Source: Eledone cirrhosa (Eukaryota). From it: 64,000 nucleotides of DNA. Shown one piece after another: positions 27,740 to 64,000 of the stretch. Below the pieces are notes generated by a model that was not told the origin of the DNA, ran no database searches, and saw only the letters and a list, made by a program, of their open reading frames with translations. Position numbers and translations under genes: made by a program. The stretch spans positions 45,384,001 through 45,448,000 of the forward strand of contig OZ024742.1 in NCBI GenBank assembly GCA_964016885.1, given 5' to 3'. Each line of letters begins with the position of its first letter. Position 1 is the stretch's first letter.

Positions 27740-29245
27740 TTTGATCTGACAGTAGTTAGAGGGTGTGTCTGTTTCCTAGATATCACCCAGTTGATCCGAC
27801 AGCAGTTAGAGTGTGTATCTATTTCCCAGAGATCACCTTATCTGCCACCCAGTTGACCTGACAGTTGTTAGGGCGTGTTTGTATTCCCCAGAGATCACTC
27901 TATCTGCCAGATAGTTGATCTGACACTAGTTAGAGCGTGGTTGTATTCCCCATAGATCACCCTATCTGTCACATAGTTGATCTGACACTAGTTAAGGTGT
28001 GTATGTATTCCCCAGAGATCACCCTATCTGTCACATAGTTGATCTGACACTAGTTAAGGTTTGTTTGTATTCCCCAGAGATCACCCTATCTGTCACATAG
28101 TTGCTCTGACACTAGTTAAGGTGTGTATGTATTCCCCAGAGATCACCCTATCTGTCACATAGTTGCTCTGACACTAGTTAGGGCGTGTTTGTATTCCCCA
28201 GAGATCACCCTATCTGTCACATAGTTGATCTGACACTAGTTAGGGCGTGTTTGTATTCCCCAGAGATCACCCTATCTGTCACATAGTTGATCTGACACTA
28301 GTTAGGGCGTGTTTGTATTCCCCAGAGATCACCCTATCTGTCACATAGTTGATCTGACACTAGTTAGGGCGTGTTTGTATTCCCCAGAGATCACCCTATC
28401 TGTCACATAGTTGCTCTGACACTAGTTAGGGCGTGTTTGTATTCCCCAGAGATCACCCTATCTGTCACATAGTTGATCTGACACTAGTTAGGGCGTGTTT
28501 GTATTCCCCAGAGATCACCCTATCTGTCACATAGTTGATCTGACACTAGTTAGGGCGTGTTTGTATTCCCCAGAGATCACCCTATCTGTCACATAGTTGC
28601 TCTGACACTAGTTAAGGTGTGTATGTATTCCCCAGAGATCACCCTATCTGTCACATAGTTGCTCTGACACTAGTTAGGGCGTGTTTGTATTCCCCAGAGA
28701 TCACCCTATCTGTCACATAGTTGATCTGACACTAGTTAGGGCGTGTTTGTATTCCCCAGAGATCACCCTATCTGTCACATAGTTGATCTGACACTAGTTA
28801 GGGCGTGTTTGTATTCCCCAGAGATCACCCTATCTGTCACATAGTTGATCTGACACTAGTTAGGGCGTGTTTGTATTCCCCAGAGATCACCCTATCTGTC
28901 ACATAGTTGCTCTGACACTAGTTAGGGCGTGTTTGTATTCCCCAGAGATCACCCTATCTGTCACATAGTTGATCTGACACTAGTTAGGGCGTGTTTGTAT
29001 TCCCCAGAGATCACCCTATCTGTCACATAGTTGATCTGACACTAGTTAGGGCGTGTTTGTATTCCCCAGAGATCACCCTATCTGTCACATAGTTGATCTG
29101 ACACTAGTTAGGGCGTGTTTGTATTCCCCAGAGATCACCCTATCTGTCACATAGTTGATCTGAAACTAGTTAGGGCGTGTTTGTATTCCCCAGAGATCAC
29201 CCTATCTGTCACATAGTTGATCTGACAGTAGTTAGAGGGTATATT
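27740..29245. repeat. Minisatellite, 62-bp unit, ~23-24 copies
   Basis: GTTGATCTGACACTAGTTAGGGCGTGTTTGTATTCCCCAGAGATCACCCTATCTGTCACATA in tandem. Confidence 0.97.
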
Positions 29246-32616: not shown

Positions 32617-33548
32617 AAGGCAGGTTATACGATGCCTGCATACGAACAGCAATGCTGCATGGCAGTGAGACCTGGGCATTGTGTGCAGAGGATATACGCA
32701 GACTAGAGAGGAACGAAGCTTGCATGCTCCGCTGGATGTGCAATAGTAATATACGTGAACGGCAAAGCATAAACGAACTAAGGAAAAAATTAGAAATAAG
32801 AGGGATCAGATGTTGTTTACTCGAGAGAAGGCTACGTTGGTACGGTCACGTGATGCGCATGAAAGACGACAGCTGTATAACAAAGTGCAGGGCAATAAAG
32901 ATAGACGGTAGCCACGGAGTAGGCAGACCCAGAAAAACATGGGACGAGCTGATAAATTCCGACCTCACACGCTTACACCTCTCCAAGACAATGTCACTGG
33001 ACCGAGACCTTTGGCGGTACTCAGTAATAGAGAAGACCCGCCTTACCTAAATACAAAGTAAAAACCTACTACAGTCAGTAGGCATCTCTATCAAACCCCC
33101 CCCCCCCCGTCCCACCACCTCCACACCATCCACACCGCCCCTTTCAATGTAAAGTTATGTTGGTCCCACAACATCCAGGCCGAAACAAATGAGATCGTGT
33201 AGGTGTCACGACAAAAAAACACACAGTCCACGCTGTAAATGTGGCCGTGTAGGCAACACGGTAAAAACCTCCCAGCCCCACACTGTAAATGTGGTTGGTG
33301 TTAGGAAGGGCATCCAGCTGTAGAAAACCCGCCAGACAGTCCACGCTGTAATGTGGCCGTGTAGGCAACACGGTAAAAACCTCCCAGCCCCACACTGTAA
33401 ATGTGGTTGGTGTTAGGAAGGGCATCCAACTGTAGAAAACCCGCCAGACAGTCCTATGCGAGCAAGACAACCACTCTTGCCTCAAGTGGGAAAACCCCCG
33501 TCCAAACCCATGCAAACGTGGAACACGGACGCTAAACCTGATGATGAT
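32617..33548 (+). mobile_element. RTE 3' fragment between (TA)n runs
   Basis: ORF 32652..33050; 3'UTR with an internal duplication. Confidence 0.93.
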
Positions 33549-33563
33549 ATATATATATATATA

Positions 33564-33628
<65 letters not shown>

Positions 33629-33638
<10 letters not shown>

Positions 33639-34168
33639 AGAATCAAAGCTATGTTCAAAGCATTTATTCACTTACAATTGTTTCATCCAAACCTAGGCTT
33701 GGAGTCTTCGGAGCATTTTTCAATGTTTGTACACATACTTGACCTCCTTTCGAACGCAAGAGACATACAGATACATATGTATATATTGATGTACAGTGGA
33801 GTGACATATATTATATTATATTATTTCTGAATGGCAATTTAAATTCAAAATCAAAATCACATTAAAACAGAATCAAAGCAAAATTAAAATACAAAATTAA
33901 TGCAAAATTAAAATACAATTGGCAGTTAACATAGATAATTGATTGATTTTGAATTTAAATTGCCATTCAGAAATAATATAATATAATATATGTCACTCCA
34001 CTGTACATCAATATATACATATGTATCTGTATGTCTCTTGCATTGGATAGGAGGTCAAGTATGTGTACAAACATTGAAAAATGCTCCGAAGACTCCAAGC
34101 CTAGGTTTGGATGAAACAATTGTAAGTGAATAAATGCTTTGAACATAGCTTTGATTCTTGTGAATTCT
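33629..34168. repeat. Long inverted repeat (~225-bp arms, ~88-bp spacer)
   Basis: 33629-33854 is the reverse complement of 33943-34168 with only a few mismatches. Confidence 0.95.
34082..34128 (+). ncRNA. Minimal type I hammerhead-like motif (mirror copy on minus strand ~33669-33715)
   Basis: tgct-CCGAAGA-c-[tccaagcc ta ggtttgga]-t-GAAAC-aatt-GTA-agtg; palindromic helix III ACAATTGT; core has C instead of U at position 4. Confidence 0.55.
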
Positions 34169-34328
34169 ATATAACTGCTCTGTAGAACAACTGATGTTAT
34201 TACATTGAGCTATTTATCTTACTGGTAATAAGGTAGTAATAAATTACTGACCTTCACTGTTTAGGGTTTAAAATATATATAACTATAAAAAGTTTTAGTA
34301 TATACATAACCATAAATAGTATCCTTAA

Positions 34329-34373
<45 letters not shown>

Positions 34374-34460
34374 AAGATTGGAATTAAAGTATTCCGCAGT
34401 TCACAGTAATAATAATAATACTAGCTCGAAGAAAAACAGAGAATTTTCATCTGAGTTCAA

Positions 34461-35080
34461 ATACAAATATATTACACAGAGAGAAGTGTGTTACACAGTG
34501 AGATGTGTGTAAAAAATTATTACATGTGAGTTTAACCGTTACTGTATGGAGAACAATACCTACAGGTTAGCAATTAAATAGAAAAAAACCTAAGTCAGAA
34601 TCAAATCTCTGAAGTAGAGTTTTAAATTACTAACCTTATAACTATAAGCTTGCTGATACGAAATTAGTTCGTTTCACCACAGAAATGTGTGGTATAACAG
34701 CCCATAGGATCTTCAGTCAGCAAGTATGGGTACTGTTTACCACACTCCTAGCCTAGGCTAGATGTGTGGTAAACATCTTAGGCTAGATGTGTGGTAAACA
34801 GTACCCATACTTGCTGACTGAAGATCCTATGGGCTGTTATACCACACATTTCTGTGGTGAAACGAACTAATTTCGTATCAGCAAGCTTATAGTTATAATT
34901 TAAAACTCTACTTCAGAGATTTGATTCTGACTTAGGTTTTTTTCTATTTAATTGCTAACCTGTAGGTATTGTTCTCCATACAGTAAATGGTATTCTCCAT
35001 ACAGTAATGGTTAAACTCACATGTAATAATTTTTTACACACATCTCACTGTGTAACACACTTCTCTCTGTGTAATATATT

Positions 35081-35085
<5 letters not shown>
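34461..35085. repeat. Long inverted repeat (~285-bp arms, nearly spacer-less)
   Basis: 34461-34745 mirrors 34789-35085; centre CTAGCCTAGGCTAG. Confidence 0.95.
34810..34885 (+). ncRNA. Type I hammerhead-like motif with atypical helix II (mirror copy ~34648-34723)
   Basis: cttgctga-CTGAAGA-...accaca/tgtggt-GAAAC-gaa ctaat ttc-GTA-tcagcaag; 8-bp helix I, 5-bp helix III. Confidence 0.65.
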
Positions 35086-35138
<53 letters not shown>

Positions 35139-35141
<3 letters not shown>

Positions 35142-35801
35142 TCATCATCATCATCGTTTAATGTCCATCTTCCACGCTAGCATGGGTTAGACGGGAGTTG
35201 TGCCAACTTGAGGCAAGGTTAGTCGGGTGACCGTGTCTTGCTCGTATAGGACTATCTGGCAGGCTTTCTACGGCTGGATGCCCTTCCTAACACCAACCAC
35301 ATTTACAGTGTGGAACTGGGAACTTTTTACCGTGTTACCTACACGGCCACATTACAGCGTGGACTGTGAGTAGTTTTTTTTTTTTTTTTTTGTCGTGACA
35401 CCTACACGATCTCGATCTCATTTATTTGGACTGGATGTTGTGGAACCAACTTTACAGAGAGAGGGTGGTGTTGGTGGGAGTGGGAGGATAGGGTAGGGGT
35501 AGTGGATTGGGGTGTATATTTAGTTAAGAGGTGCCTACTGACTGTAGGTTTCACTTTGTACATAGGCAAGGTGGGTCTTCTGTATTACTGCATAGCGGCA
35601 AAGATCTCGGTCCAGTGACATTGTCTTAGAGAGGTGCAAGTGTGTAAGGTTGGAATTTATCAGATCGTCCCAGGTTTTTCTGGGTCTACCTACTCCGTAA
35701 CTACCATCAATTTTGATCGCCCTGCACTTTTTTATGCAGCTGTCGTCTTTCATGCGCATCACGTGACCATACCAACATAGTCTTCTTTCAAGTAAACAGC
35801 A
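35139..35801 (-). mobile_element. RTE 3' fragment between (TA)n runs
   Basis: ORF 35535..35897 (part); (GAT)n tail. Confidence 0.92.
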
Positions 35802-35953
35802 TATATATATATATAATATAGAGAGAAGAAAACGCATGAGAGAGTGCATGTTTATCAGGTTACAAGGGATACCACTAGCTTTTTCCTTTGAGCTCATGAA
35901 TTACAGGGACTAACACGAGTTTCTGACTCCATTACTTCCACCAACAGTTTTGC

Positions 35954-36167
35954 AAGAGATTTTAACATGAATGGACCTGTTATTTTTATCTATTTTTTTC
36001 AAATTTCAACCCGGCCGTCCCCTCAATCTATCTTATTTCTCATTCTTTCTTTTGATGAAGGACTTGCGTCCGAAATGTTAAGACCCTCTTCCTGCTATAT
36101 CAAACGTTAACCTAATATATACCTTCCATATACTGTACCAATTGTGTTGTTATTTCTGTTTACCTTT

Positions 36168-36172
<5 letters not shown>
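35954..36172 (+). mobile_element. ~220-bp non-coding element with minimal hammerhead-like core (Penelope pLTR/retrozyme-like)
   Basis: TTGATGA-a-ggac ttgc gtcc-GAAA-tgTTA at 36052-36080; inverted copy at 38484-38704, partial copy at 44272-44410. Confidence 0.65.
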
Positions 36173-36247
<75 letters not shown>

Positions 36248-36833: not shown

Positions 36834-36894
36834 TTTCATTCTGATGACTGAAAGCAAATTTTGCTTGCTTTCAAGAAACCACTGGTAAATGAAA
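36834..36894 (+). ncRNA. Type I hammerhead ribozyme motif
   Basis: tttcatt-CTGATGA-c-[tgaaagcaa attttgc ttgctttca]-a-GAAAC-c act g-GTA-aatgaaa; all three helices pair; cleavage triplet GUA. Confidence 0.78.
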
Positions 36895-36972: not shown

Positions 36973-37783
36973 TTGTATGATGCCTGCATACGAACAGCAA
37001 TGTTGCATGGCAGTGAGACCTAGGCATTGTGTGCAGAGAATATACACAGACTAGAGAGGAACGAAGCTTGCATGCTCCGCTGGATGTGTAATAGTAATAT
37101 ACGTGAACGGCAAAGCATAAATGAACTAAGGGAAAAATTAGAAATAAGAGGGATCAGATGTTGTTTACTCGAGAGAAGGCTATGTTGGTATGGTCACGTG
37201 ATGCGCATGAAAGACGACAGCTGTATAACAAAGTGCAGGGCAATAAAGATAGACGGTAGCCACGGAGTAGGCAGACCCAGAAAAACCTGGGACGACCTGA
37301 TAAATTCCGACCTCACACACTTACACCTCTCCAAGACAATGTCACTGGACCGAGACCTTTGGCGGTACTCAGTAATAGAGAAGACCTGCCTTACCTAAAT
37401 ACAAAGTAAAACCTACTACAGTCAGTAGGCATCTCTAACAAAATACACCCCCGTCCCACCCGATCCGCACCGCCCCTTTCAATGTAAAGTTATGTTGGTG
37501 CCACAACATCCAGGCCGAAACAAATGAGATTGTGTAGGCGTCATGACAAAAAAACACACAGTCCACGCTGTAATGTGGCCGTGTAGGCAACACGGTAAAA
37601 ACCTCCCAGTCCTTCACTGTAAACGTGGTTGGTGTTAGGAAGGGCATCCAGCTGTAGAAAACCCGCCAGACAGTCCTATGCGAGCAAGACAACCACTCTT
37701 GCCTCAAGTGGGAAAACTCCCGTCCAAACCCATGCAAGCGTGGAAGATGGACGTTAAACGATGATGATGATGATGATGATGAT
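36970..37783 (+). mobile_element. RTE 3' fragment between (TA)n runs
   Basis: ORF 37027..37398; (GAT)n tail. Confidence 0.93.
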
Positions 37784-38338
37784 ATATATATATATATTAT
37801 GAAGTAAAATGACAGGAGGCCAAATAGGTTGAATTTCCTCAATTATATATTTCTGCAAACATAATGCACATTTCAGTGGCCAGGTTGCGTAAGAACCCGA
37901 TGACATCTTCAGATGCAAATTGCATAATAGATGAATACCAACGGAATGATGGTAAACACATTCCAAGAGGATTTAAGGAAAAAAGCAAAGAAAAAACAGT
38001 GAAAAAAAACGTGTGTTTATGTGTTTGACTCAGTGACGATCGAAGCAGCATGTTGTTATTAGGCCCCGTCATCTCTGAGTGATTATCTTCAACAGATCCT
38101 TCCTAAGGTGAAACTAATTGTTCTCAGAAATGGTGAATTAACTGTTGTGGAACTACTTCTACCAAACTCGTCCCATGGACTGAGTGTTGTACTACTACGG
38201 ATATAACTCACCAGTGTTCTACTATATATATATATATATATATATATAAGCAAAATGAATAAATGTAGGAGTTGCATGTCGTTAGAACAAAATTTTACTT
38301 CTTACATGATGTTTTACCTTACGATACATATATCCTCT

Positions 38339-38374
<36 letters not shown>

Positions 38375-38483
38375 AAAGGCAAATAGAAATAGCAAAGCAA
38401 ACGTCAGTAAAATGAAGAAATATATTATTAGTTTTACGCTTGATATAGTAGGAAAAGTTTATATATATATATATATATATGTA

Positions 38484-38701
38484 TGTAAAAGGTAAACAGA
38501 AATAACAACACAATCAGTACAGTATATGGAAGGAATATATTAGTTTAACGCTTGATATAGCAGGAAGAGGGTCTCAACATTTCGGACGCTAGTCCTTCAT
38601 CAGAAGAAAGAATGAGAAATAATAGATTGAGGGGACGGGCGGGATGGAATTGGAAAAAATGTTTTTAGATAAAAATAACAGGTCCATTCATGTTGACATC
38701 T

Positions 38702-38704
<3 letters not shown>
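38484..38704 (-). mobile_element. Second copy of the ~220-bp hammerhead-like element
   Basis: Reverse strand CTGATGA-a-ggac tagc gtcc-GAAA; same ends as 35954-36172. Confidence 0.65.
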
Positions 38705-44265: not shown

Positions 44266-44879
44266 ATGTGTGTAAAAGGTAAATAGAAATAACAAACTTA
44301 ACAAAACAAATGGCACAGTACATGGAAGAAATATATTAGTTTAATGCTTAAAATAGCAGGAAGCAAGTCTTAACATTTCGGACACAAGTCCTTCCTCAGA
44401 AGATAGAGTTAGAAATAAAAGGTGAATAGAAAGTAAAGAATGATAAGAGGAAGGCACGGGGAAAAAGTGTGTGTGTGGGGTGGGGGTGGGGGTGGGGTGA
44501 AAACACACTTGTATATTTAGTCGCCCATCTTGGAGTATATAAATATATATTATTAGTATATCTTTGAATTTTGGTCTTTGTATTTATTATTACTCTATAT
44601 ATACACACACATGTATCAACAGTGGAAGTATACAATCAAATCTCAAAGGAGAGTAAAGAAAGACTTAAAGGTTGTAATTGCCAGTTACAGAATGAGGCAT
44701 TTGCTCATGCAAAACAAATGTTAAGAGAAGAGTTGGGTTAAAGTGTGGAAGTTAGTGATGTGTGTTAGAAATAAGCAGAGCACAAACATTCAAAAGTATT
44801 AGAAGAAAATCAACTTACTTTCATAAAAAAACCTGTTTAAACAGTTTTTTTTATGAAAGTAAAGAGTGTGAATATTTGG

Positions 44880-56620: not shown

Positions 56621-56814
56621 AAGGAAAGAATTATTTGAAATTGAAATGTTGTGTGTGTGTATTAAAATAAATAAGTGTTTTTGATTTTCTCTGTAGACAC
56701 GAGGCAACCTTAGCTCACTGCTTATTTCTGAAAGTGACTAATACGATAGATTGTTAATACATGATGTATTATTATGGTTGATGAACCCAGTTGGTGCTTG
56801 TATAGACTTTTTTT

Positions 56815-59200
56815 TCCGTTAAATAACAATTGCTTAGCTAAAAATATAGTATATAATTGTAATGTAAAAACTAATTTAAATTCATTTAATTATGTAGGAT
56901 CTACTTCCACAGATTTTAAATCCTGTTTCAATAACCATAAAAACTCTTTTACACATCTAAACAAAAAATCTTCAACCTCTCTATCTAGTTCATTATGGGA
57001 CCTCAAATTAAAGAACGTTAAATATTCGTTGCTTTGGAATATTATTTCAAAAGCTACTCCTTTTAACTCCTCTTCAGGAAATTGTGATCTTTGTATAGAG
57101 GAAATATTCTTTATATTAAAGACCAAAAATTCCCTGAACCTAAGGAACAATTTATTCAGTTGCTGTAGACATAGATTGAACTCAACGTTTAAATATAAAT
57201 TTAAAATGTAATATATAATTAATTAATTCTATTAATATATTGAACCTATCGATAAATCATTAGATTCCTTCATTTGACTGCTTAAGCTCTCAAGTTAAAA
57301 AATTTTTTTTTCATAAATATAAATAAAAATAAAAAATTCTTCTAGAGAAACATACTTGTTTCTACTTTAGGCACAAGGCCAGCAATTACCCAGTGCATTA
57401 CTGGTACTTTATTTTATCGACCCCGTAAGGATGAAAGGCAAAGTCAACCTCGGCGGGATTTGAACTCAGATCGTAAAGGGACGTAACTATGCTTGAAAGC
57501 ATGGCGTCCGACCCTCTACCGATACTGCCAATCCACAAGGGGAAAATATTTTATTTGAAAGTTTCTCCTACTTTTGAAAGTTTCTCTTTCTTTTTCTTAT
57601 GGCTATAAAATTAAGTTAAACATACTGAGAACTAAATATTATATAGAAACTTTAAATTTTTATACTGAATCTATTAAACATATTCTTATTTTAAAATTAT
57701 AACTTGAGATATTCTATAATATTTAAAAAAAAATTTTTTAAATTATAGTGATTTAAAAAAAAATTATATTGATTTAAAGTTATATTGCTTATAATTATAT
57801 TTCCAAATCGTAATATAATTCATTTTTATTTTTTATTTTAATTTATTTTATTTTATTTTATATTATATATATTATGTACTTCAATTATACTATGTACTGT
57901 ATTTATAAATCTCTCTCTCTAAATGTATGTGTGTATATATATATATGTATGTATATATATATGTGTGTATGTATGTATATATATACGTGTGATGCATATC
58001 TACCTGTATGTGTAAGTATGTATATGTGTATCTATGTGGGGATTGTGTGTATATATATATATGCATACAATTCGAATGCACTTGTTTATAAGGATTTTCT
58101 TAAGGTTCGTGATAAACAAACTTATATAATAACAGTCACAACTACATAACAGGTGGATTTATTAGATATAAAACTTATATTAAAATAAATTTGTATAATA
58201 ACATAAGATTTGCATAACCTAAAATTTCCTTTACTATCTTAACATTTGTAACATTTAATATAAGTAAATAACTTAATTTCCTTCACGCTGTTTTGATATT
58301 ACATAGAAATGATTTTCTCGGTTTTTTCTGAGATTTTCTCCGAAAAATCTATTAGTTTATGAAAATTCCTATATTGTATGTATCTATATGTAGGTGTATG
58401 TATATATATTTATATGTATATATATCTGTGTGTGCGTATGGATATATATGAATATATTCTTTTAATAATATATAGATTTTTTTATAATATACAGTCTTAA
58501 TAATATATAGATTTCTTAATAATATATAGATCTCAATTTTTTAATGTATAGATCTCATAATCTAATTGATAAACTAAACATTTAATCATATTTGAACAAT
58601 GGTTAAATTCTCCTATTATTTATGTTATTTTCCATTCACGCTTATTTAAACTTCTCTACTCATCCATTAAATATTTATTCTTTCACTTCATCTCAAAAGT
58701 TAAGCTAATACAACAACCTATCACTTAGAGCTTTCGCTTTCTCTTTTCTTTTTTCTTCTTTTTTTCCTTTTCTTAGAGTTTGCTCTTTTTTCTCTTTTTT
58801 TTCTATCTCTCTTTTTTGTTTCTCTCTCTCTCTTTCTCCATAATCCAACGGCTTATTTAAATCTACTCTGATTTAAAATTTCCGAAACTAATTTACATAA
58901 TAGTATAAATAAATTTATAACCCCACTATCCGGGAGCTTCCAACAGAAATGGTCGCATTCTTTAAGGGTATGTCAATATTTATTTATAAAACTGCTCTAT
59001 ATTATATTTTATCTGATGAAAGCACACCATAATTTAACTTAGTGTCCTTGAAATATGTATAATGAAATAAATATGGTTTTATAAATATAGTTTCCATTTG
59101 TTAATATATCATATTTTTACTCCAATAATTTGTTGAGTGCTTTATATCAGTTATAAAAATATTTGCTTGTTGTATCCCAACAATTTAAATAGAACTTCTA
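56815..59200 (+). mobile_element. Penelope-like element 3' remnant: GIY-YIG endonuclease plus AT-rich trailer (right end uncertain)
   Basis: ORF 56774..57211: C..KNIVY..NYVGST..FK..NNH..CDLCIEE..LNLR..CRH; decayed CTGATGA..GAAA motif at ~59013. Confidence 0.78.
57357..57537 (-). mobile_element. Young Meta-domain SINE
   Basis: Reverse strand A-box TGGCAGTATCGG, B-box GAGTTCAAATCC, Meta domain. Confidence 0.88.

Positions 59201-63075: not shown

Positions 63076-63077
<2 letters not shown>
59204..63077 (-). mobile_element. Apparently full-length RTE LINE (5'UTR, APE, RT, PHD, 3'UTR) with a few inactivating lesions
   Basis: ORFs 62849..61539 (APE), 61573..60728 (RT N-half, TAG stop), 60506..59571 (PHD and C-terminus); (GAT)n tail. 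Confidence 0.96.
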
Positions 63078-63110
<33 letters not shown>

Positions 63111-63815
63111 ATATATATATATATATATACAATATATATATATATAATATATATATATATACATACAATATATATATATATATATACAATATATATATAT
63201 ATAATATATATATATATACATACAATATATATATATATATATATATACAATATATATATATATAATATATATATATATACATACAATATATATATATATA
63301 TATATATACAATATATATATATATAATATATATATATATACATACAATATATATATATATAATATATATATATATACATACAATATATATATATATATAT
63401 ATATACAATATATATATATATATATATATACAATATATATATATATAATATATATATATATACATACAATATATATATATATATATATACAATATATATA
63501 TATATAATATATATATATATACATACAATATATATATATATATATATACAATATATATATATATAATATATATATATATACATACAATATATATATATAT
63601 ATATATATACAATATATATATATATAATATATATATATATACATACAATATATATATATATATACATACAATATATATATATATAATATATATATATATA
63701 CATACAATATATATATATATATATATATACAATATATATATATATATATACAATATATATATATATAATATATATATATATACATACAATATATATATAT
63801 ATATATATATATACA

Positions 63816-63877
<62 letters not shown>

Positions 63878-64000
63878 ATATATATATATATATATATATA
63901 CAATATATATATATATATAATATATATACAATATATATATATATACATACAATATATATATATATATATATACAATATATATATATATATATATACAATA
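63078..64000. repeat. Compound (TA)n microsatellite with periodic interruptions
   Basis: (TA)n punctuated by CAA, TAA and CATACAA. Confidence 0.97.

Follow-up and report, generated by a model that had tools for sequence, protein, structure and literature searches.

A hammerhead-bearing foldback in a (TA)n tract of the Eledone cirrhosa genome, probably a head-to-head insertion of a Penelope-like element

Introduction

Ends of Penelope-like elements (PLEs) that lie head to head, with a central palindrome and a one-sided tail, have already been published, and self-priming is the reading that was offered for these junctions (PMC3846280). The same source records PLE terminal repeats with 18- and 38-bp 5′ palindromes. 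PLE hammerheads situated on opposite strands 100-700 bp apart were reported by Cervera and de la Pena (2014, PMC4209133). PLE copies that are both truncated and inverted are described in PMC8557442, as are PLE tails and (TA)n targets. Poseidon of the anole nicks and extends both strands of AT-rich DNA; its reverse transcription begins at two sites within the RNA, which delimit the tail, and the ribozyme is copied into DNA uncleaved (PMC11167929). Additionally, inverted copies of Penelope yield siRNAs in transgenic flies (PMC3681739).

Here we describe a foldback found in a 64,000-nucleotide stretch of the Eledone cirrhosa genome, which is called the window below. The foldback is two short back-to-back copies of a hammerhead-bearing repeat family. 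We consider it probable that the locus is a single insertion of a PLE, or of a non-autonomous derivative of one, into (TA)n, with two 5′-truncated, hammerhead-bearing 3′ ends placed head to head.

Structure of the foldback

Self-comparison of the window revealed a mirror repeat of 625 bp (34461-35085), which agreed with the near-perfect 625-bp foldback proposed in an earlier analysis of the letters alone, referred to here as the sequence-only reading. The features of the foldback are listed in Table 1. Alignment of the two arms showed 283 of the 286 aligned bases to be identical, with three mismatches, and the right arm has a 9-nt deletion, the missing nucleotides being 34630-34638 of the left arm. 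The tandem duplication present in the right arm only had been read as ~22 bp at ~34966-35010; it was found, with an exact unit of 21 nt. The arms meet at a palindrome, as the sequence-only reading had claimed, and CTAGCCTAGGCTAG is the longest exact palindrome at the centre of the foldback. The sequence that it had seen duplicated at the centre is an exact 22-mer (34754-34775 and 34779-34800). The 3 nt after this central repeat close a 6-bp hairpin in which 34760-34765 pair with 34773-34778, and the repeat and both arms start at the same base. The ~90 bp by which the left arm had been said to be longer amounted to 89 nt, and (TA)n was present on both sides, as that reading had also stated. The flanks of the foldback are not mirrored beyond the arms.

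No further copy of the arm was found within the window besides the two arms, and no ORF was found when both arms were read in six frames. Neither the AC-rich end hairpins (z -1.3) nor the 89-nt tail (z -0.9) fold better than shuffles. Three features had been overlooked in the sequence-only reading, namely a complement between the 5′ flank and loop II of the hammerhead, the intron-like segment and a second hammerhead foldback.

Table 1. Positions, within the window, of the features of the foldback and of its neighbour
Feature	Position	Strand	Remarks
(TA)20	34332-34371	.	left half of likely microsatellite target
One-sided extension of left arm, 89 nt	34372-34460	-	likely PLE 'tail'
Left arm	34461-34755	-	5′-truncated family copy, sense strand outward
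19-bp tandem dimer giving two AC-rich hairpins	34472-34510	-	inside inner 3′ end; mirror 35036-35074
Intron-like segment, 75 nt, GT-AG	34560-34634	-	3′ of hammerhead; candidate, sequence pattern
Type I hammerhead motif, left arm	34649-34724	-	predicted cut 3′ of 34657 (GUA)
5′ flank complementary to loop II, left arm	34725-34748	-	
Perfect 14-bp palindrome at head-to-head junction	34748-34761	.	
Central insert, 23 nt	34756-34778	+	repeats arm's first bases, plus 3 nt
Right arm	34779-35085	+	5′-truncated family copy, stops at inner family terminus
5′ flank complementary to loop II, right arm	34786-34809	+	22 pairs predicted
Type I hammerhead motif, right arm	34810-34885	+	predicted cut 3′ of 34877
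21-nt tandem duplication, right arm only	34972-35013 (34972-34992 / 34993-35013)	+	
(AT)33	35074-35139	.	right half of likely target; then (CAT)n and LINE-related repeat end
Second foldback	33629-34168	.	226-bp arms, 3 mismatches, 88-nt AT-rich spacer; ~200 bp left of first
Outward minimal type I hammerheads of second foldback	33669-33715 (-), 34082-34128 (+)		U4C core, 7-8-bp stem II, palindromic stem III

Relatives of the arms in public sequencing runs

The family was surveyed by aligning four of nine listed public runs (X1, X2, X4 and X7; X3, X5, X6, X8 and X9 were left out) to 34372-34800. The listing contained no RNA run, which says nothing for or against expression. Sequences matching this 429-nt stretch comprised 397, 515 and 468 contigs in X1, X2 and X4 respectively, and 517 reads in X7. 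Because hundreds of contigs matched, the arms represent a repeat family that is present under two organism labels. Exact-pattern searches for relatives gave 0 in metagenome contigs and 0 in viral contigs, and the family may already be catalogued in Repbase or Dfam.

Loose ends that run into TA were counted from 24 listed of 255 rows. At 34458-34467 they comprised 1 + 5 contigs in X1, 11 + 4 in X2 and 10 in X4, together with 29 reads in X7, and this family terminus mirrors the point at which the right arm stops. Near 34372-34388 there were five such ends in X1 and 12 in X4, and the five of X2 begin there with a less pure TA consensus. As other copies meet TA runs at both sites, both outer ends of the foldback are shared family ends with the 89-nt piece between them. 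Summed depth, which is not copy number and dips wherever the present copy diverges, peaks at 34477-34506 and falls from 34627-34641 to 34717-34731 by ~60-fold in X1 and X2 and 5-fold in X4. Most copies of the family appear to be without the 5′ half of the ribozyme and to end in (TA)n at either of the two sites. The piles of read ends in X7 were rejected as biology, since the six listed of seven are all on AATT sites and are likely restriction cuts.

Analysis of 15 listed of 38 joints showed that three change strand (34535/34589, 34568/34669 and 34599/34662); the 102-letter side of joint 34568/34669 reaches back to 34467, consistent with a copy in head-to-head arrangement. Another five, all from X4, lead back to the outer end (34372-34381), as in partial tandems, and the remainder are six skips and one joint going back elsewhere. 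At 34755, three contigs each in X1 and X2 continue into other sequence. One X4 contig (record 17) runs from 34637 through 226 other letters to 34373, which implies a 491-nt head-to-tail unit; this period comes from one contig, under the other organism label.

No contig or read crossed the centre of the foldback among the listed rows of X1, X2, X4 and X7, and depth at 34762-34800 was 0 in X1, X2 and X7. The present copy's own letters at 34663 and 34746-34747 are absent from X1 and X2, and these two runs therefore likely lack the locus and cannot test its centre. The letters at 34514, 34663, 34690 and 34712 are common to both arms and are rare or absent in X1 and X2, so the arms derive from one source or were homogenised. 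Additionally, at two centre positions the left arm has private letters and the right arm those of the family.

The hammerhead motif in each arm

The sense strands of the two hammerhead motifs point outward, away from the centre of the foldback. Both motifs have an 8-bp helix I, the core CUGAAGA, GAAA, a 5-bp helix III and a GUA triplet, and the strong helices I and III of the sequence-only reading were thereby recovered in both arms. In the right arm the core is at 34818, G12 is at 34859 and stem II is a U-U followed by 2 bp, giving a loop II of 28 nt (34828-34855). Folding with helices I and III forced turned the helix II region into two small hairpins, as had been read from the letters, and the stronger helix II hairpin sits 16 nt from A9. 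Because hammerheads allow 1-2 nt between core and stem II (PMC10085705), the active fold would need the U-U, two C-G pairs and the 28-nt loop; the canonical core CUGANGA / GAAA / UH is present only if stem II is taken to be the 2-bp CC/GG after the U-U. No Rfam hammerhead reached the gathering score in the window and none was among the 19 matches with E<=10 at 33500-35200; the neighbouring minimal hammerheads were likewise unmatched by the Rfam hammerhead models.

Unconstrained nested folding of the motif alone gave P(H1)/P(H3) of 0.985/0.015, and inclusion of the 5′ flank gave 0.0/0.946. Helices I and III were jointly favoured in none of the unconstrained nested folds examined, and these models predict that the active fold for self-cleavage at the putative site is disfavoured.

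Forty of the 177 variant rows of the relatives are listed, and 14 of these rows fall in the motif, at 13 positions. Core and stem positions varied at 2/40, compared with 11/36 for free positions (Fisher p 0.005 for the rows listed). The two varied core or stem sites were U4, which changes to C in half of the X4 depth, and the last pair of helix I, and the varied free positions included N7 (A, G or U) and loop III. Among the rows listed, this pattern suggests selection on the hammerhead fold in the family. The sequence-only reading had put forward two checks on paralogs, of which conservation of the hammerhead core stood; a second copy folding back at the same point was not found among the listed rows.

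The intron-like segment follows the ribozyme on its 3′ side; in D. virilis, by contrast, the intron ends at helix I (PMC4209133). Its GT-AG pattern was fitted after the fact. The right arm is without the donor, which was lost by the 9-nt deletion, and in ~75% of the X1 depth the donor is weaker (34631 variant). Spliceosomal introns are retained in some PLE families. The terminal repeat of Penelope contains an intron of 75 bp (PMC2377424), and the equal length of 75 nt may be a coincidence.

Complementarity between the 5′ flank and loop II

The 24 nt directly 5′ of helix I are complementary to the 28-nt loop II at -27.6 kcal/mol, compared with -8.1 ± 2.6 kcal/mol for shuffles, of which 0/2000 were as good. 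Since contigs from three runs (X1, X2 and X4) include this flank, it is family sequence and not a scar of the present insertion. In a transcript that stops short of helix I's 3′ strand, the flank hairpin is already the best fold. With the core forced active, knots of 6, 11 and 14 bp sum to -20.9, -23.5 and -26.0 kcal/mol with no penalty added; the nested hairpin fold (-38.0 kcal/mol) beats these short knots and is matched only by the full duplex (-38.6 kcal/mol), which is likely too long to fit. Eight listed variants lie in the duplex, of which five keep the pair by wobble and three break it unless the partner changes; no compensatory pair was readable from the variant table, which gives no haplotypes. 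A non-circular permutation (PMC10085705) was rejected because the flank is not followed by GAAA.

Two-pair stems II and U-U openings occur naturally, often with a pseudoknot on the stem I side, in the pseudoknotted hammerheads with 1-2-bp stem II of Perreault et al. (2011, PMC3088659). The present motif resembles these in its short U-U-opened stem II and in the pairing of a stem I side with a stem II side. It differs in that the complement is of 22 bp, compared with the 4-6 bp tested there, and excludes helix I in nested models. Long loops II were found in File S2 of PMC8557442 for two plant PLE-X1 elements only. Our literature search, for the most part of paper listings, found no description of a cephalopod PLE hammerhead or of a PLE hammerhead with such a flank duplex.

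The long loop II, with its predicted pairing to the upstream flank, is the only unusual part of the locus. The complement could act as a switch, could form a pseudoknot or could be an old foldback that was fixed in the source element. More specifically, the PLE hammerhead could be switchable, with a short pseudoknot as the on state and the 22-bp hairpin as the off state; most copies would in that case start close to the cleavage site because the cut would define the template's 5′ end, and copies with the full ribozyme would be snapshots of the off state. We hold this version only tentatively and think it rather unlikely. If true, it would make the in vivo role of PLE hammerheads testable by counting 5′ ends in one genome. 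To our knowledge, no in vivo role has been shown for any PLE hammerhead, and a family that has a long flank-loop II complement, and in which copies are lost steeply across the ribozyme, would offer a direct test of such a role.

Assignment to Penelope-like elements

Several features of PLE insertions were found at the locus. Each arm has a type I hammerhead with its sense toward the 3′ end, the inverted copy is 5′-truncated and lies head to head with a palindrome at the junction, and there is an optional one-sided tail between two family-wide 3′ ends. The partial tandem arrangement of PLEs was found in other copies and not at the present locus. A PLE context explains why there are (TA)n flanks and an 89-nt extension, which is likely the PLE tail. 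EN+ PLEs are defined by an ORF with a telomerase-like RT and a GIY-YIG endonuclease. Neither an RT nor an endonuclease ORF was found in or adjoining the arms, as expected of a truncated stump, and as no such ORF is linked to them the PLE clade cannot be assigned; the Hydra and Neptune clades, which target (TA)n, are recognised by motifs of the RT, the linker and the endonuclease. The Naiad clade was rejected, since a complete hammerhead core and three helices are present here and Naiad lacks a canonical hammerhead according to PMC8557442. Four 11-13-nt motifs taken from the two foldbacks were absent from the supplement of PMC8557442, in which line breaks could hide a match. PLE-like sequence does occur elsewhere in the genome, as a GIY-YIG fragment at 56765-57211.

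Compared with insertions of EN+ PLEs (Arkhipova et al. 2013, PMC3846280; Craig et al. 2021, PMC8557442), the locus is alike in its head-to-head arms, junction palindrome, one-sided extension, (TA)n target and target-site duplication that is unreadable inside (TA)n, both flanks being (TA)n, and also in the partial tandems of other copies. It differs in that the present copy is without an ORF and that its tail is of 89 nt, compared with the published 30-40 bp. Comparison with PLE hammerheads (PMC4209133; Hydra-clade motifs, PMC8557442 File S2) showed the same type I form, sense to the 3′ end and pairing of opposite strands ~100 bp apart. The U after A9 and the U before GAAA also occur in many Hydra-clade rows of File S2. 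The present motif differs from those of both sources in a 5-bp non-palindromic, monomer-like helix III, a 2-bp stem II and a 28-nt loop II that is complementary to the 5′ flank. It lies 196-285 nt from the 3′ ends, farther than in most Hydra rows (PMC8557442). With Poseidon of Anolis carolinensis (Frangieh et al. 2024, PMC11167929) and Penelope of Drosophila virilis (Schostak et al. 2008, PMC2377424), the locus shares two 3′ ends downstream of the hammerhead that adjoin AC-rich hairpins, an uncleaved ribozyme copied into DNA and, as a candidate only, a 75-nt intron-like segment in the terminal repeat; it differs from them in that no ORF start was found after the ribozyme. The structure is ordinary for PLEs and its layout, the ribozyme variant apart, has already been described; the neighbouring foldback is another example.

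Alternative explanations

Non-LTR retrozymes, as known from PMC7229834 and 10.64898/2026.07.22.740005, are 150-450-bp tandem repeats with type I hammerheads, and the family could be one of these (a tandem non-coding hammerhead unit that spreads via circular RNA), with the present locus as an aberrant inverted insertion. The locus is like the retrozymes of PMC7229834 in being non-coding and AT-rich and in its type I hammerhead, with a possible ~490-nt tandem unit in one relative; it differs in being inverted and truncated. The absence of an ORF from the arms, the X4 contig that implies a head-to-tail unit and the five listed joints that return to the outer end all agree with a retrozyme. Against it, the 491-nt period is drawn from that single contig of the other organism label, most copies appear to be without the ribozyme 5′ half and to end in (TA)n at two sites like PLE stumps, and the window contains no tandem copy, the locus itself being inverted and not a head-to-tail array. 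We regard a retrozyme as unlikely, and the reading overlaps that of a PLE, since such retrozymes have been proposed to be non-autonomous PLE derivatives. A foldback chimera that arose in the assembly or the library would account for a centre that is without read support in X1, X2, X4 and X7 and for letters shared by the arms that X1 and X2 seldom or never show. Such an artefact is quite improbable, however, as the arms differ by three substitutions and two indels, the right arm ends at a family terminus past which the left arm continues, the right arm also agrees with the family at the two centre positions at which the left arm departs from it, the mirror does not extend into the flanks and other copies change strand too.

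The long inverted arms with TA on both sides would also suit a miniature inverted-repeat DNA transposon that inserted at TA with the hammerhead as a passenger. Its terminal inverted repeats would be equal, whereas the ends found here are unequal by 89 nt; moreover, coverage of the family is polar, the junction points vary, head-to-tail joints occur and other copies continue into other sequence at the point where the left arm ends. We give this origin very little credence. The same very low standing is given to the foldback as a host gene for long dsRNA or small RNA that is kept by selection. Folding predicts a 312-bp duplex (-512 kcal/mol) for RNA that spans both arms, with 624 of its 714 nt paired, inverted Penelope copies do give siRNAs in flies (PMC3681739) and arm identity is high, all of which would favour such a gene. 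The identity is explained by recent origin, however, and the locus appears to be absent from X1 and X2, which contain the family, and sits in a nest of microsatellites and LINE fragments. The sequence-only reading had proposed that transcription in either direction would give one ribozyme plus its antisense as long dsRNA; its geometry is right, but neither hammerhead helix forms in the predicted duplex.

Proposed insertion mechanism

Under the preferred reading of a PLE insertion, the PLE enzyme would nick both strands of (TA)n and reverse transcription would be initiated at two sites within the RNA: at the outer site for the left half, which would give the tail, and at the inner site for the right half; two starts, one per site, would explain the unequal ends. 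Synthesis would stop ~31 nt beyond helix I and the cDNA end would switch onto its own or its partner's new strand. A single slip would leave the 22-nt duplication together with 3 templated bases, and the halves would be joined through a shared TA. The 9-nt deletion, the 21-nt duplication and the three substitutions would be later or repair-time changes. The mirror is likely built anew at each insertion. As it stands, the locus is probably an inert stump. RNA reading through it, where made, is predicted to fold into a long duplex in which both ribozymes are hidden, and this duplex could feed siRNA or editing pathways; such foldbacks, if transcribed, would be sources of long dsRNA, as is the case for Penelope in flies. 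The zero-loop palindrome fits either a 2-nt TA overlap of two ends or a resolved hairpin, and the 6-bp hairpin closed by 3 bases could be a small footprint of self-priming, chance also being possible. Self-priming by one cDNA and the joining of two cDNAs are indistinguishable at the present locus. The sequence-only reading had inferred self-priming or template switching during reverse transcription; this fits the anatomy and the published reading of PLE junctions (PMC3846280), and the PLE context was not identified in it. The locus is a young, readable junction, and its halves starting at the same base, together with the slipped 22-nt repeat, constrain how PLE insertions are sealed.

Neighbourhood of the foldback

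The window is repeat-rich, with RT and APE-endonuclease fragments, its repeats seem similar to octopus ones, and the region around the foldbacks looks like a microsatellite hot spot with nested insertions. No sequence similarity was found between the two foldbacks, and the hammerheads of the second sit 44 nt inside its ends. A descriptor written after seeing the motifs found seven hammerhead-like motifs in the window, compared with a mean of 0.03 in 60 shuffles. A lone well-formed type I motif at 36834-36894 (+), with a 7-bp helix I and a 9-bp helix II, ~40 nt before (AT)n, is likely another PLE stump. Two weaker hammerhead-like motifs that the descriptor found, at 59005-59069 (+) and 37859-37916 (-), may be decayed or chance.

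The GIY-YIG fragment (+ strand) is a 148-aa open frame that carries the C-terminus of a GIY-YIG-like endonuclease. Its scores against Atlas clusters were 0.94-0.96, and of the four clusters listed two bear the name GIY-YIG; Pfam returned nothing for it. By eye, its sequence resembles Hydra-clade rows of PMC8557442. The frame is followed by an AT-rich stretch that is broken by a dispersed repeat (~57352-57537) with several copies in the window.

Ends of RTE-like LINEs with (CAT)n or (TGA)n lie by TA runs and face each other around the foldbacks (32810-33601 and 35085-35802), with another at 37158-37797. A ~240-bp repeat flanked by (TA)n is present as inverted copies 2.3 kb apart (35954-36195 and 38460-38704) that are 91% identical; further partial copies are at 44272-44418 and 38374-38457, and the descriptor found no hammerhead in this repeat. 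A 62-bp tandem array of 23.3 copies with 96% matches occupies 27789-29235, and ~920 bp of degenerate (TA)n (63076-64000) reach the end of the window.
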